Part shown: positions 1-64,000 of the stretch, piece by piece
How the letters are laid out: each line of letters begins with the position of its first letter
Position numbering within the stretch: position 1 is the stretch's first letter
Assembly: GCA_965261545.1 (NCBI GenBank)
Contig: CBDHDF010000011.1
Coordinates: 736,001-800,000, forward strand
Direction of reading: 5' to 3'
From: Bdellovibrionales bacterium
Lineage (GTDB): Bacteria; Bdellovibrionota; Bdellovibrionia; Bdellovibrionales; UBA1609
DNA: 64,000 nucleotides
Position numbers: made by a program

Positions 1-3000
1 TTCCTTGAGTTTCTTTTTTCCTGTGTTTGTTTCTGGCTTTTTTGTTTCGCCACGACGCCAGTGCTCAACCATACCAGTGGAATTGACGGCATCAGCAAAG
101 GCTTGTATTTCGGACGGATCTTGTGATGATTCCTTATTCAAGTGGATTCGTACCAAATCGAGTATTTCTTGTTCCGTTTTACCTTTCAGTTCTAATTGCC
201 ACCGTCCCTCCGGAGTTTTCATTGCCTCGTGTCGCTCTTTTTCCTCAATACGCTTTTGGTCTTCGTTACACAATTTTTTTACCCAATGGTCTGTTTTCTC
301 CTTGTCATGGATAAAGCGTCCATACCCAATTGCTGTTTTGGCGCCAACCCCAACCTCTTGAAGAGCATCGATCAACCAATGAGAAATAGTTTGGAGATCG
401 TTATCATTCACAGTCTTCTGGCAAGGGATAATCCCAAATAAGAAAGATGTGTCAGCGGCCGTCGTTAGAAAGGGAATGGGGGTGGGAGATCGCCAATCTC
501 CTGGTGGATCCTTCTCACTCCAGCCCGCATAGTGGGGAGTCATGATATCGGCCTCAAGTTGCACTGGATTAACTGGGATAGCGTCGAGAAAACATATGTC
601 ACCTGCTTGTGTTGAGTCTCCAAAAAAATGATCCAAAAGTTCTTGCTTAGAATTATCAACATTAACCTCCATATTTACCCACGAGCGAATCAAGCCTTTG
701 ACCGAACTTCCTGGAAGGTAGGGAGTGCCCAATGTTGGATGCCAGGCAAAACCGTTTTCAATGGGATGATTCAGACCCATTCCCGTGACAAACCGAGACT
801 CAGTTTTGAAGATATTAAATTGGCCACCACGCTTTTGGATCATTTGTATCAAACGTAATACATTCTCTGTGAGTTGCTTCTTGATTCCAACTGGGCCATT
901 ATTGAATCCAGTAACAGTTTGGATCCAAGCGAGTTTCGGGTTGCTATCTTTACTCGAAAGTGTCCAAGAATTGCCAGAGTTGTCTTCCTTCTTGACTTGC
1001 CATTTGTTACAGAATTTGTCAAACCACAAGCCCGCATGTCCATCAGGCTCCCAACTCACTGGCTCTTGGCGTTTATATAGTGGAAGCTTCCCATTCATGT
1101 CTTATTCCCTTCACCCTTGGGTCAATGCCGTTTCCTTAAGCCACCACACCCCTCTGCCTCTGCGTTAAGCTATTTCTTTTAAAAGAACTCCCAGCGCTTT
1201 TGATAGACCTTTCATAGCTTCTTTTGAAGTGCCTCCTCTTCTCCATTGAAATCTTCATCAGCAACTTTATCTGCTTCCTAAATTTCTGATAGAGCCCCGC
1301 AACAAAAAGAGGGATGCTATCCATTATGAAATCAAGAATCAGTTTAAAGTTAGGTTTTTTGTAGTCATTTTTTACCAACTGATTCACACTGTCTTCATCC
1401 TCATTTATGCTCATTTGAATCTTTGTATAATTGAAGAGCCAAAAATAAGAATACAGCTCTTGCAATATTCCATTAAGGCTTGTTGAGTGCCACTGCTCCA
1501 TTTTCATTGTCGATGTAAAATCACGAAATGTCGTTTCTATTTCCCAACGACGAGAGTAAAGAGCAACCATATCCTTCTTGTCCAAGGAGCCATGCGGAAG
1601 ATTAGTGGCCAAAACAGAGAACTCCCCAGTCTTTGGGTTTTTATACTTATAGAGATGAATGACCACCCCCTCAATAACCATTTGTGAATACCAACCTGGG
1701 CCATTAAATAAATTTACGATGGGGATAAAAGTAGAGCCTCGCTTACAACGCGCAATAAAGAAGTTACTGGCTTGAGCATGGGCCTTAATAATCTCTGTAG
1801 ATAAATAAAGCCTATCGTAGAGAGTTATGCTATTACTCTCAAAACTACCTATCATTTGAATAGCATTGGCGATTTCGTTGAGAGCGGGAGAAAAGCAAAG
1901 ATTCTTTGTCACACCCGATAAAACGTCATAAGCATGAGATAGATACATACGTAAGAAATGAGTTTCCATCTCATTTGGGCAAGGGTACCCACAATAACCC
2001 TCCTTTAAAAGATCTTTAGAGCGAGGAAGTGCTAATTGGTCGCCATCTATGGCATAGATATAAAAACCATGAAACGTTTTTCTCAATGGTTCGTAGTCTG
2101 TAATCAGAGATTCAAAGATATCTTTGAAAAATAGGTAAGAAATACTTTGACGTATCTTGCTGAGACTGCTTTTGACTGGCATGAGAAGCAGGTCACCAAA
2201 ATGAGTCCATACCGTCTTAAGAGCGATTTGGTAGCCTTCGTAATTTGTTCCGGAAATAAGATAGATAATGGTAAAAAAGAAAATTTGAGGATTAAATTTT
2301 CGATTCCTTTTTTGTTTTTCTGGATCGACAAGGTGCTCTGGCTTGAAGGAAGAATCAAGTTTTGGTAGAATAAAATGGTCATCTGTGACGCGAACTCGTC
2401 ATTTGGGGGCTTTCGAGATCAATATTGGATTGCATGTGACTTACTCCTTGGTTGAGGGTTGGGTGTAAAATAAAACAAGTCTTATTCTTGTCGATTTATC
2501 TAATGATTTCAAGAGATTTTTCTTAAGGAAACGGCATTGACCCTTGGGTAATAGAGCCCGGCAGCATTTCTTGTGCCACTCCAGCCAAGCCAATGCTTCA
2601 GCTTGGGCATGAAGGTAGAAGCATTCAGAGTTCTCCATGATGGTCTCCAAGAGATCCTTATCTTGTGGGTACACACCGTCTGTTCGGCAAAGCCATTTAT
2701 TCAAACTGAGATACAGTTCGTGATGTGCTTGCTCATCATTGTTTCTTTTTTCTTTGGATCCGGCGGCAGCTCGTTCTGTTGCCAGTGCTTGTCCCAAACC
2801 GTTCATGATAATACTTGGCCCTAGGCGGTTTACATAGGCACGATATCGTGCCTTGAATTTATCATCATCATTATTCTTTTCACTTAGGTTTTTGACACGC
2901 TTCAATGCATCTTCTGCCCGTTGTTGTTCAATGGTTTTCTTCACTCTGCCCCCTTATTATTACTAGGGAAGCGCACTGCGAACCAACCCTGACCTACAGT

Positions 3001-63000: not shown

Positions 63001-64000
63001 GGGTTGAAATTGAGAAAGAAACTCGCCTAATTGTACCCATTCATCACTTAGAAAGCATCTGTGCATTTGGGCGAGTTGTAGTGACACCTCCAGCTATGTC
63101 TTTGTGCTGGGATCATCAGGTAGCTATACATTACCATACAGAGAACGGCTACCTCTTGGCACAAGTATTGGGGAGCGGAGATACACGCTACTTGTTACGT
63201 CGGGCTCAATACTCCACAGCAGATAGTCCAAAGGGTGCTGCCCACATAGCTCGCCAGTTTGTTGCTGGAAAGCTACAAAATTCACGATCCAATGTATTAA
63301 GGGCAAAAAGGGAAGCTGATGATAATGCAGATTATAAACAACTCGCAAAAGCTGCTGATGAACTTGCTCAGATTATCCGCCGCCTTAGTCATCATCAACT
63401 CACTGACAAGGGTTGTTCACTCCGGGAGATGCTTGATCCAATTCGAGGGTTAGAAGGATTGGGTGCCAAAATTTATTTTTCAGTACTTCAATACATGCTC
63501 AAACAACAGCGTGAAGACTTTCGATTTGTAACCCGTACTCGGCGCCCACCTCAGGACCGAATCAATTGTCTACTTTCCTTCATTTATGCTCTAGTTCGCC
63601 ATGATTGTTTGGCTGCATTAACAACCGCTGGACTGGATCCATATGTTGGTTGGCTTCATGTAACACGTGCCGGACGACCGGCTTGTGCTCTTGACTTGAT
63701 GGAAGAATTTCGACCTTGCTTAGCAGATCGTTTAGCATTAACCCTAATCAATCGCCGCCAGATCGAGCCTAAACATTTTTGTGAACGAGAGGGTGGTGCT
63801 GTAGAATTTACCGAACGAGGTAGAAAGGAGGTTATTCAAGCTTGGCAGCGGCGCAAGCAAACGGAAGTGAAACATGCTCTATTCAAAGAGTCTATTCGCT
63901 TAGGGCAGGTGTTTAGCATCCAAGCTAAGTTATTAGCAAGGAAACTACGTGGGGATATTCCTGACTATATCAGCAATTCCCGTCGAAAAATAGTTTAGGC

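Follow-up and report, generated by a model that had tools for sequence, protein, structure and literature searches.

Mobile elements and cas genes in the window

The analysed window, a 64-kb stretch of contig C11 from the genome of an uncultured Bdellovibrionales bacterium (G000; 4,315,628 bp in 11 contigs), carries Type III-B and Type I-C cas genes, a CRISPR array and several heaps of nested IS (Table 1). The genome-wide survey's note had described C11:700-830 kb as made almost wholly of mobile DNA and broken cas genes, which overstates the mobile part: 73% of that region is repeated and 63% belongs to our library of elements, the corresponding values for the window being 65% and 55%. As to the cas genes, cmr3, cas7 and cas8c are indeed interrupted in the window, but four long cas-like ORFs directly upstream of it carry no insertion. 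An allele of the IS1634a of the nested heap that lacks the intron is present in contigs assembled from public runs.

Table 1. Features of the 64-kb window (positions within the window)
Feature	Position	Strand	Remarks
IS4a (IS4-family, 1,417 bp, 18-bp inverted ends, 10-11 bp TSD)	1123..2539	-	between cmr5 and cmr6
Type III-B genes cmr5, cmr4, cmr3, cas10/cmr2, RAMP gene (cmr1 position), Csx1-like	2441..15522	-	
cmr3	3969-4688 and 10091-10561	-	in two pieces
ISNCY (~60 copies)	4774..10165	+	split by full IS21a (5778-9023); interrupts cmr3, 7-bp TSD intact
CRISPR array, 12 repeats	16071..19235	.	split by 3-copy IS110-family element (~16299-18324) and 470-bp local duplication
cas2	19475..19894	-	without adjoining cas1; IS heap begins at 19800
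Heap: ISNCY split by IS21a (20416-23661), adjoining partial IS256	19800..26918	.	
Mini-intron (626-nt ORF-less group II intron)	26204-26829		inside partial IS256 of the 19800..26918 heap
IS4-family element, DruA-like domain fused to transposase, ~25 copies	28985..31538	+	
Rpn/PD-(D/E)XK nuclease-family repeats	31522..33724	-	one fragment, one full ORF
Nested heap	34332..43486	.	IS4a (34332-35748) abuts left-truncated IS1634a (35749-43343), which holds IS21a (37118-42390), which holds IS4b (39149-41165)
Mini-intron copy	42574-43199		inside IS1634a of the 34332..43486 heap
Single-copy block: sigma-70 factor, nucleotidyltransferase, metallophosphoesterase	43500..48833	.	measured at 5.6 kb; single-copy depth control
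IS256 (~67 copies)	49291..54238	-	split by IS4a (50753-52169), then IS66a (52607-54238)
Type I-C cas genes	54846..63998	+	cas3 and cas5 full length; also cas4
cas8c stub	within 54846..63998	+	cut by IS256 (58300-60187), most of gene missing
cas7	within 54846..63998	+	cut by IS4a (60245-61661)
cas1, the genome's only one	within 54846..63998	+	final codons continue into a further IS at 63971

The genome holds three CRISPR-cas gene sets, and one cas operon carries no insertion. None of 15 spacer queries matched resident IS or ICE, or any other place in the genome, beyond chance words and the local duplication.

Extent and composition of the repeated DNA

Self-BLAST of the whole genome found 1,934,521 bp (44.8%) repeated at ≥200 bp and ≥90% identity, 1,807,561 bp (41.9%) at ≥500 bp and ≥95%, and 1,654,814 bp (38.3%) at ≥1 kb and ≥90%, the last being a BLAST version of the rule applied to Orientia rather than a Vmatch result; the 42-45% given by the survey was thus reproduced. 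Sequences in at least 11 copies make up 29.7% of the genome, and 31-mers occurring more than once cover 41.9% of its positions. The high transposase and paralogue counts agree in kind, with 991-1,107 transposase-type ORFs among 4,003 (at least 20% of genes, by a crude ORF caller whose count takes in fragments and shadow ORFs) and a paralogue of at least 80% identity for 2,022 of the 4,003. By comparison, a 400-kb sample of the flagellated relative G042 showed 0% repeat within itself.

Library elements account for 31.9% of the genome, other repeats for 13.4% and unique DNA for 54.8% (2.38 Mb, with about 1,900 unique ORFs). At least 30.8% is IS-type DNA, in roughly 700 copies belonging to 24 families plus one further recombinase element, and group II introns contribute about 1%; the survey's figure of about 46 intron domains agrees in kind with our 43 domain V-VI matches, of which 27 reach the gathering score. 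The remaining repeats, neither IS nor intron (about 13%), include several conjugative elements. The repeats are zoned: in 10-kb windows, 33% of the genome is less than 10% repeated and 28% is more than 80% repeated, and 96% of 339 orthologue matches lie in neighbourhoods with less than 50% repeat.

Reality of the load

Such a load could also arise if haplotigs, or the accessory DNA of several strains, had been merged into one MAG. The contamination figure of 3.66%, five small contigs that are 44-99% repeat, two full tmRNA genes with 8 differences between them, strain variants within single-copy DNA in run X3, and an IS depth per copy of only about 35-60% of that of the single-copy block in runs X1 and X2 are all in keeping with this. 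Nevertheless, the six large contigs alone are 43.4% repeat, exactly-two-copy DNA amounts to just 6.2%, and TSDs match across nested multi-kb blocks. Per-copy depth is also nearly constant across IS families inside each run and in X3 equals or exceeds single-copy depth, and the run from a second study, which covers only IS and whose IS256 differs by less than 1%, gives similar proportions. We therefore regard a load much inflated by assembly as highly improbable. Haplotigs as the main cause are ruled out by the scarcity of long duplications (1.6% at ≥5 kb and ≥99%) and by the repeats within C11 alone (47.5%), which largely removes a worry that the survey had itself raised.

Depth in the public-run contigs tracks the assembled copy ratios; X1 taken alone would give only about one third of the assembled copy numbers. 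The rRNA operon, RecA, RpoB, RpoC, GyrB, MutS and MutL (marker genes identified by sequence motifs) are each present once, and completeness is 96.8%. The load is real and rare, yet it is no record: 38.3% lies within the 33-51% of Orientia tsutsugamushi (PMC6005640), so that a place among the most repeat-rich bacterial genomes stands, but the top rank does not, because IS occupy 54.8% of the chromosome of Rickettsia rMd (10.1101/2025.05.06.652349).

Identity and turnover of the IS

The commonest IS, IS4a, is present in about 120 copies and had been left unnamed. Its transposase scores 123 bits against NF033592 (cut-off 115), and on this model score the dominant IS is assigned to the IS4 family; its 18-bp inverted ends are flanked by TSDs of 10-11 bp in 54 of 74 intact copies, which fits the family's range of about 10-13 bp. 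Full-length transposase ORFs are numerous (79 in IS4a, 52 in IS256, 43 for IstA of IS21a and 41 in ISNCY), and diversity among transposase copies is only 0.01-0.5%. Values of pN/pS, which rest on 1-47 variants per family, are 0.09-0.22 in eight of 12 ORF families. Two IS1634 families have higher values, 0.53 and 1.41, and two families with a single variant give zero or no defined ratio. Singletons per copy-site are 1.3-2.0e-4 in four families.

The copies recombine with one another: IS4a fails the four-gamete test at 61 of its 153 site pairs and IS21a at 39 of its 78, and 45 of 118 IS4a left ends lack a TSD partner, with seven swapped matches. Since gene conversion can keep old copies alike, the low diversity gives no date for a burst.

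Placement of insertions and state of the core

A census of 234 recent, intact, TSD-bearing insertions from 14 generalist families placed 132 in elements, 44 in other repeats, 41 in intergenic DNA and at most 17 in a gene, where uniform placement would predict 112 in genes. If insertions were spread evenly over all DNA except the unique coding part, 133, 56 and 28 would be expected in elements, other repeats and intergenic DNA, respectively; the expected 133 uses present-day element content and is therefore partly circular. Active targeting, by which the common IS would prefer IS or accessory DNA and make selection unnecessary, does describe specialists at fixed sites, namely IS110 next to the ends of IS66 and to its own end, the introns within IS256 and IS21, and serine-recombinase elements in intron RT genes and in ISNCY; several IS also show short flank preferences. 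The specialists are nevertheless a small share of the bases, the generalist families sit in many different hosts with unrelated TSD sequences, and their nested insertions equal the no-preference expectation, so that targeting is very unlikely as the general explanation.

The core gene set is intact. Unique segments of at least 10 kb (1.85 Mb in total) are 89% coding with a mean of 398 aa, a single case of a gene cut at an element occurs among 307 unique orthologues of genes from the sampled relatives, and G000 has 36 tRNAs. This absence of mass pseudogenisation bears on a second alternative, early symbiont decay of the classical kind, in which recent host restriction and relaxed selection would have released an IS explosion in a genome heading to 1.3-2 Mb. 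Broken defence genes would fit such decay, as would the rise of transposase candidates with genome size (Spearman 0.82 in 26 contiguous flagellin-less genomes of the family, where kin are not independent and IS themselves add size) and a modestly long RpoB end branch (0.26 against a median of 0.14, though shorter than in several reduced lineages, in a quick tree whose outgroups do not group together and so give no root). However, flagellin, FlhA and chemoreceptors have no match or remnant in the G000 genome, which indicates that these losses are complete and probably older than the present IS copies, and the transposases are intact, unlike the uniformly dead ones described for anglerfish symbionts (PMC6020299). 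We consider early decay unlikely.

The third alternative, suggested by Orientia, is that one conjugative element was amplified and its decaying copies make up the repeats. The layout, with core islands between repeat zones, is shared with that organism as described in PMC6005640, and nine VirB4/TraC genes were found, matching the nine T4SS clusters previously counted, three of them F-type at 98-100% protein identity. Yet the VirB4 genes fall into about five unrelated groups of 1-3 copies, the seven transfer regions inspected contain few library elements (1-5 per region, most of them marginal in position), and all non-library repeats reach 13.4% against 30.8% for IS-type DNA, leaving this origin extremely improbable. 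As the main cause, amplification of a single ICE is ruled out by the number of VirB4 groups and the few elements in the transfer regions. The insertion pattern fits near-random insertion combined with purging. It does not match the early decay of an endosymbiont or the amplification of a single element known from Orientia.

Lifestyle and relatives

Pilus and secretion ATPases are kept, DUF285 surface repeats give 133 matches and ankyrin gives nine, nearly all in one protein; no match to an ATP/ADP (TLC) translocase was found in the 96.8% complete genome. From the missing flagellin, FlhA and chemoreceptors, the wealth of surface-repeat proteins and the likeness to non-motile, reduced Bdellovibrionota of a glass sponge (PMC9944714) we infer that G000 is probably host-associated. 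The longer G042 proteins without a G000 match number 119; a Pfam search with 88 of them named no flagellar family and was uninformative.

The Bdellovibrionales label fits RecA, whose two best matches among named genomes are Pseudobdellovibrionaceae MAGs (79% and 72%); by RecA identity G000 is near no relative, and the set holds no second genome of its genus. First-look DDE_Tnp_1 candidates number 341 in G000, 223 in G008 and 157 in G091, 2-4 in three contiguous flagellated genomes, and 0-5 in most contiguous flagellin-less relatives, so that loss of motility is not sufficient for an IS flood. The uniqueness implied by the survey does not hold, as G008, of the same family, has a similar repeat load in sampled sequence, and G091 about half of it. 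These two floods are made of different IS from those of G000: no recent sharing was found with the sampled relatives, the best matches in 400-kb samples having 27-77% amino acid and at most 74% nucleotide identity. G000 is the largest of the 26 contiguous flagellin-less genomes, and the flagellated G062 and G082 are larger.

Proposed explanation

We propose, with a probability of roughly 0.65, that G000 is a non-motile, probably host-associated Bdellovibrionales bacterium whose genome has undergone a real, genome-wide and self-feeding IS expansion around an intact core. Most IS would insert with little regard to target, and insertions into needed genes would be purged by selection; near-random transposition with purging of gene-breaking insertions would make the heaps feed themselves. 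Each harmless insertion would enlarge the harmless target, such that heaps, which reach 26 kb, would expand and fuse into zones of 100-300 kb. It may further be supposed that in small, host-confined populations the slight cost of extra DNA is invisible to selection while core genes are still protected. More speculatively, conjugative elements might import new IS families, aided by a CRISPR defence that is broken in part. DNA would be lost through deletions and rearrangements between copies, and the genome may in time arrive at the IS-poor state of 1.3-2 Mb seen in other flagellin-less relatives.

It is possible, although we put it forward tentatively, that the non-motile Bdellovibrionales make up a natural series not reported before: floods of different IS would have arisen independently in several lineages, others being IS-poor at 1.3-2 Mb, and the flood of G000 would be a long-lived, high-turnover state around a fully selected core, held by IS, introns and recombinase hyper-parasites, rather than passing decay. 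A literature search, which took in few subscription journals, turned up no publication that describes IS floods in Bdellovibrionota. Were the series real, Orientia-scale repeat loads would not be confined to heritable intracellular symbionts, and comparisons within a single family could test what makes bacterial genomes expand.

What makes the genomes of some host-associated bacteria fill with mobile DNA, when those of most become smaller, is still debated, so far mainly on examples from Rickettsiales and insect symbionts. The insertion pattern can be explained simply and in numbers, by insertion at random, purging from genes and growth of the harmless target, and the family, with about two dozen near-complete genomes of 1.3-4.3 Mb and very different loads, provides a comparative test set. 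Short-read MAGs of such organisms lose at least one third of the genome, so that "reduced" sizes in the group may be underestimates.

Comparison with known systems

The anglerfish symbionts 'Ca. Enterovibrio luxaltus' and 'Ca. E. escacola', which are extracellular and marine, resemble G000 in their high transposase share (28-31% of coding sequences), single rRNA operon and tRNA number (36-39); as described in PMC6020299, all their transposases are pseudogenes, 785-974 pseudogenes are present and motility is kept. G000 differs in having intact transposases and an unbroken core and in having lost motility. Sodalis and Serratia are further early-stage degenerating symbionts.

Within the same phylum, the reduced, non-motile Bdellovibrionota from a glass sponge (1.24 and 1.67 Mb), proposed to be host-associated predators, likewise lack flagellum and chemotaxis genes; they are reported to be without type IV pili, and the available text of PMC9944714 mentions no IS expansion. 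The genome of G000, in contrast, measures 4.3 Mb; pilus ATPases are retained and ankyrin matches are few.

The comparison with Orientia drawn by the survey holds for amount and layout, and both genomes have many transposase and transfer genes, but not for cause. According to PMC6005640, a single amplified conjugative element is central to the repeats of Orientia, where genes are fragmented and the core comprises 657 genes, whereas in G000 the repeats are mostly IS, the conjugative modules are few-copy, largely uninterrupted and nearly IS-free, and unique ORFs number about 1,900.

A close parallel in kind is Rickettsia rMd from the lacewing Mallada desjardinsi, with 1,564 IS of 17 families: there too diverse IS enlarge the genome, the core is mostly single-copy and a conjugative element is not the driver, in a heritable intracellular arthropod symbiont described, in the available text, as being without CRISPR (10.1101/2025.05.06.652349). 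Three features of that expansion, namely many IS families, an intact single-copy core and the largest genome (here among the 26 contiguous flagellin-less ones), are found in G000. On an expansion that came after earlier reduction, G000 offers the clean loss of flagellum and chemotaxis genes, the single rRNA operon, the 36 tRNAs and the 2.38 Mb of unique DNA, from which no order of events follows. Unlike rMd, G000 belongs to the Bdellovibrionales, has a lower IS share (at least 30.8%) and no ATP/ADP translocase match, and carries three CRISPR-cas sets along with numerous group II introns and a number of conjugative elements. G000 extends the pattern to the predatory phylum Bdellovibrionota.

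Repeat load and element content

The repeat load of this Bdellovibrionales genome (G000) is real and extreme. The genome-wide survey's note had put the repeated share at 44.7, 41.9 and 38.3%, and self-BLAST of the whole genome (4,315,628 bp, 11 contigs) reproduced these figures at 44.8% (≥200 bp/≥90%), 41.9% (≥500 bp/≥95%) and 38.3% (≥1 kb/≥90%), with 29.7% in at least 11 copies. The share reaches 65% in the window and 73% in C11:700-830 kb.

Boundary mapping, combined with scans of representatives from 98 paralogue groups against NCBIfam (77) and Pfam (70), yielded 24 IS-type library elements: three of IS4, four of IS21, four of IS1634, two of IS66, single IS256, ISNCY, IS110, IS3, ISL3, IS91 and IS481-like entries, three unassigned elements and one serine-recombinase element. 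The library was later extended by another recombinase element and five intron references. Its members account for 31.9% of the genome, of which IS-type DNA contributes 30.8% and introns 1.05%; other repeats make up 13.4% and unique DNA 54.8%. Summed end counts give 782 elements, about 50 of them introns, a figure that leaves out rarer IS outside the library; group II intron domain V-VI matches number 43. The commonest IS (about 120 copies), previously described as an unnamed DDE_Tnp_1 type, scores as IS4 family (123 bits, cut-off 115). The other repeats include conjugative modules (nine VirB4/TraC genes in about five groups), tandem Rpn and Hjc-like nuclease arrays and surface-protein repeats.

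Assembly artefact as an alternative

Duplicated haplotigs could have inflated these values, and this proved mostly not to be the case. Duplications of ≥5 kb at ≥99% cover only 1.6% of the genome, and repeats still amount to 43.4% with the six large contigs alone and to 47.5% for C11 against itself. There are one rRNA operon and 36 tRNAs in the whole genome, and RecA, RpoB, RpoC, GyrB, MutS and MutL are each single, as judged by sequence motifs. Of 74 whole IS4a copies, 54 keep an intact TSD (target-site duplication), as do 23 of 31 IS21a copies, and matching TSDs bracket nested blocks as well.

Four of five listed sequencing runs were compared with window positions 41900-61800, dividing contig depth by 31-mer multiplicity in the assembly. 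Depth per assembled copy, over five families each, was 1.2-2.1 (X1), 2.8-3.7 (X2) and 3.1-4.4 (X3), against single-copy depths of 4.6 or ≤2, 5-6.7 and 2-3, respectively, so that relative copy numbers match the assembly. Pooling the three runs brings the absolute numbers to within about 1.0-1.6-fold of the assembly, although X1 by itself would suggest a third. All three come from one sample, which may be the assembly's source, and such depth is not copy number. In X5, from a second study, only repeats were covered (0.11-0.25 per copy), and the IS256 sequence differed slightly.

Layout, insertion targets and the intact core

Zones of 100-300 kb at 70-90% repeat are separated by blocks of 20-65 kb that are free of repeats. 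Nesting is seen in the window, where IS1634a holds a 626-nt ORF-less group II intron and IS21a, itself holding IS4b. Among 403 intact copies, 159 are nested in another element and 139 stand at mixed junctions, while other repeats hold 53 and unique DNA holds 52. The 14 generalist families contribute 234 intact insertions that bear a TSD, of which at most 17 are in a gene, against 112 expected under uniform placement; the remainder (132 in elements, 44 in other repeats, 41 intergenic) may be set beside 133, 56 and 28 expected for uniform placement outside unique coding DNA, an expectation that is partly circular because it uses present element content. The core is 89% coding (mean 398 aa), and of 307 unique genes with an orthologue in the sampled relatives, 1 is cut at an element; both the insertion distribution and the intact core are direct observations. 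Broken genes include cas genes, a large helicase-like gene, a pilin-like gene and surface proteins.

The interference genes of type III-B and type I-C are broken and only one cas1 is present, while a third cas operon, upstream, carries no insertion. Comparison of the spacers with the genome found no match elsewhere. An IS110 copy inside the CRISPR array is flanked by a duplication of the array end that includes one repeated spacer.

Copy diversity and recombination

Divergence among transposase copies is 0.01-0.5% and private changes are few, while pN/pS is 0.09-0.22 in 8 of 12 families; two IS1634 families with few variants gave 0.53 and 1.41, and two further families have a single variant each. 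The four-gamete test was failed by 61 of 153 site pairs in IS4a, 39 of 78 in IS21a, 7 of 78 in IS256 and 0 of 3 in ISNCY, indicating that IS copies recombine with one another. Because of gene conversion, low copy diversity does not date the expansion. IS4a left ends lack a TSD partner in 45 of 118 cases and GC skew flips many times per contig, as would be expected from IS-mediated deletion and rearrangement. The conjugative modules are more diverged (96-98.5%) than IS copies, yet hold few IS, which suggests selection on the modules or recent import.

Nested elements and other structures

Several further structures were observed (see table). The 1,936-bp serine-recombinase element has a single gene and 16-bp inverted ends. 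It interrupts group II intron RT genes of 3-4 different families at their conserved PQG...SP motif, in antisense orientation. A 97% variant (6 copies) uses a different site, in a fifth RT. Of 29 metagenome relatives, 7 likewise adjoin RT halves at the PQG...SP motif, and a limited literature search found no published description. The second recombinase element, at one fixed site within ISNCY, seems to move together with its host as a 4.6-kb composite. IS110 also forms tandem arrays of up to four copies, and other intron-in-intron arrays are present. The two tmRNA genes, each at the end of a recombinase-like ORF, and tRNA-Gln(ttg), called three times, are probably integration sites of conjugative elements.

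Coordinates of individual features
Feature	Position	Remarks
CRISPR array-end duplication	window 15788-16255, 18323-18790	470 bp, 94% identical
1,936-bp serine-recombinase element	C11:871158-873093, C10:793054-794989, C7:146916-151828, C10:10006-10145, C11:367627-368185	outside the window; labels L240-L245, L247
2,451-bp serine-recombinase element	C10:13210-15660	686-aa ORF; 7 more full copies
Main IS110 adjoining IS66a ends and own end	C7:121201-128203, C7:211537-216661	repeated
tmRNA genes	C2:48920-49277, C11:894679-895034	both full; 8 differences
Tandem Rpn/YhgA-like nuclease genes and Hjc-like genes with variable coiled-coil repeats	C2:298196-305534, C2:345000-358300, C2:383727-390147	about 20 copies each; boundaries not IS-like
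626-nt intron, head-to-tail tandem	C2:405046-406297, C11:525050-525747	
DUF285/PARCEL proteins (examples)	C10:762686-776005, C7:433662-449387	spread genome-wide; ORFs up to 2,534 aa
FlhA/SctV-type export protein	G008:C2:944668-946374	

Placement and relatives

The Bdellovibrionales label fits, since RecA has its two best matches, out of the 80 named genomes listed, in Pseudobdellovibrionaceae MAGs (79% and 72%). No second genome of the genus was found among 109 family genomes. Searches of G000 gave no match to flagellin, FlhA or a chemoreceptor and no ATP/ADP translocase; pilus/secretion ATPases are kept. Non-motile, reduced Bdellovibrionota are described from a glass sponge (PMC9944714). DUF285/PARCEL surface-repeat proteins are greatly expanded, with 133 domain matches, compared with 13 in G091; the other genomes compared, G008, G017 and G042, have none.

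Among 95 family genomes, first-look DDE_Tnp_1 candidates, which are not copy numbers and miss repeats hidden in fragmented assemblies, number 341 in G000, 223 in G008, 157 in G091, 42 in G106 and ≤22 in the rest. In the 29 assemblies of ≤11 contigs, three flagellated genomes have 2-4 each, and the 26 in which flagellin was not matched (at E≤0.001 for 7 of them, at 1e-38 only for the other 19) have 0 to 341, rising with genome size (rho 0.82, kin not being independent). Within-sample repeats in 400-kb samples were 27.7% (G008), 17.9% (G091) and 0% (flagellated G042), and samples of G000 at matching fractions had 28.9% and 34.8%; the load of G008 is thus similar to that of G000 and that of G091 about half. 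The IS of G008 and G091 differ from those of G000, and a quick single-gene RpoB tree of 36 rows, in which the long branch of G008 and the root are both unsure, sets G000 apart from them. G008 also has 37 ankyrin matches and, with no flagellin match, an FlhA/SctV-type protein, possibly of a flagellum-derived secretion system.

The best-supported mechanism, to which we give roughly two chances in three, is near-random transposition with purging of gene hits. Many active IS families would transpose near-randomly, insertions in needed genes would be purged, and self-made harmless targets would grow with each insertion, specialist parasites nesting on top of the heaps. Small host-bound populations and import by ICE (conjugative elements) may have contributed, and a later collapse to small genomes might follow.

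Comparison with known systems

No report of IS floods in Bdellovibrionota was found in the literature covered, which mostly excludes subscription journals. The main value of G000 lies in its place at the upper end of a series of genomes that can be compared within a single family. Orientia has 33-51% repeats (PMC6005640) and resembles G000 in repeat amount and layout, whereas no single conjugative element dominates in G000. In anglerfish symbionts transposases are 28-31% of genes, all dead (PMC6020299). Rickettsia rMd, at 54.8% IS, shares the IS-driven pattern of G000, although its load is higher (10.1101/2025.05.06.652349).
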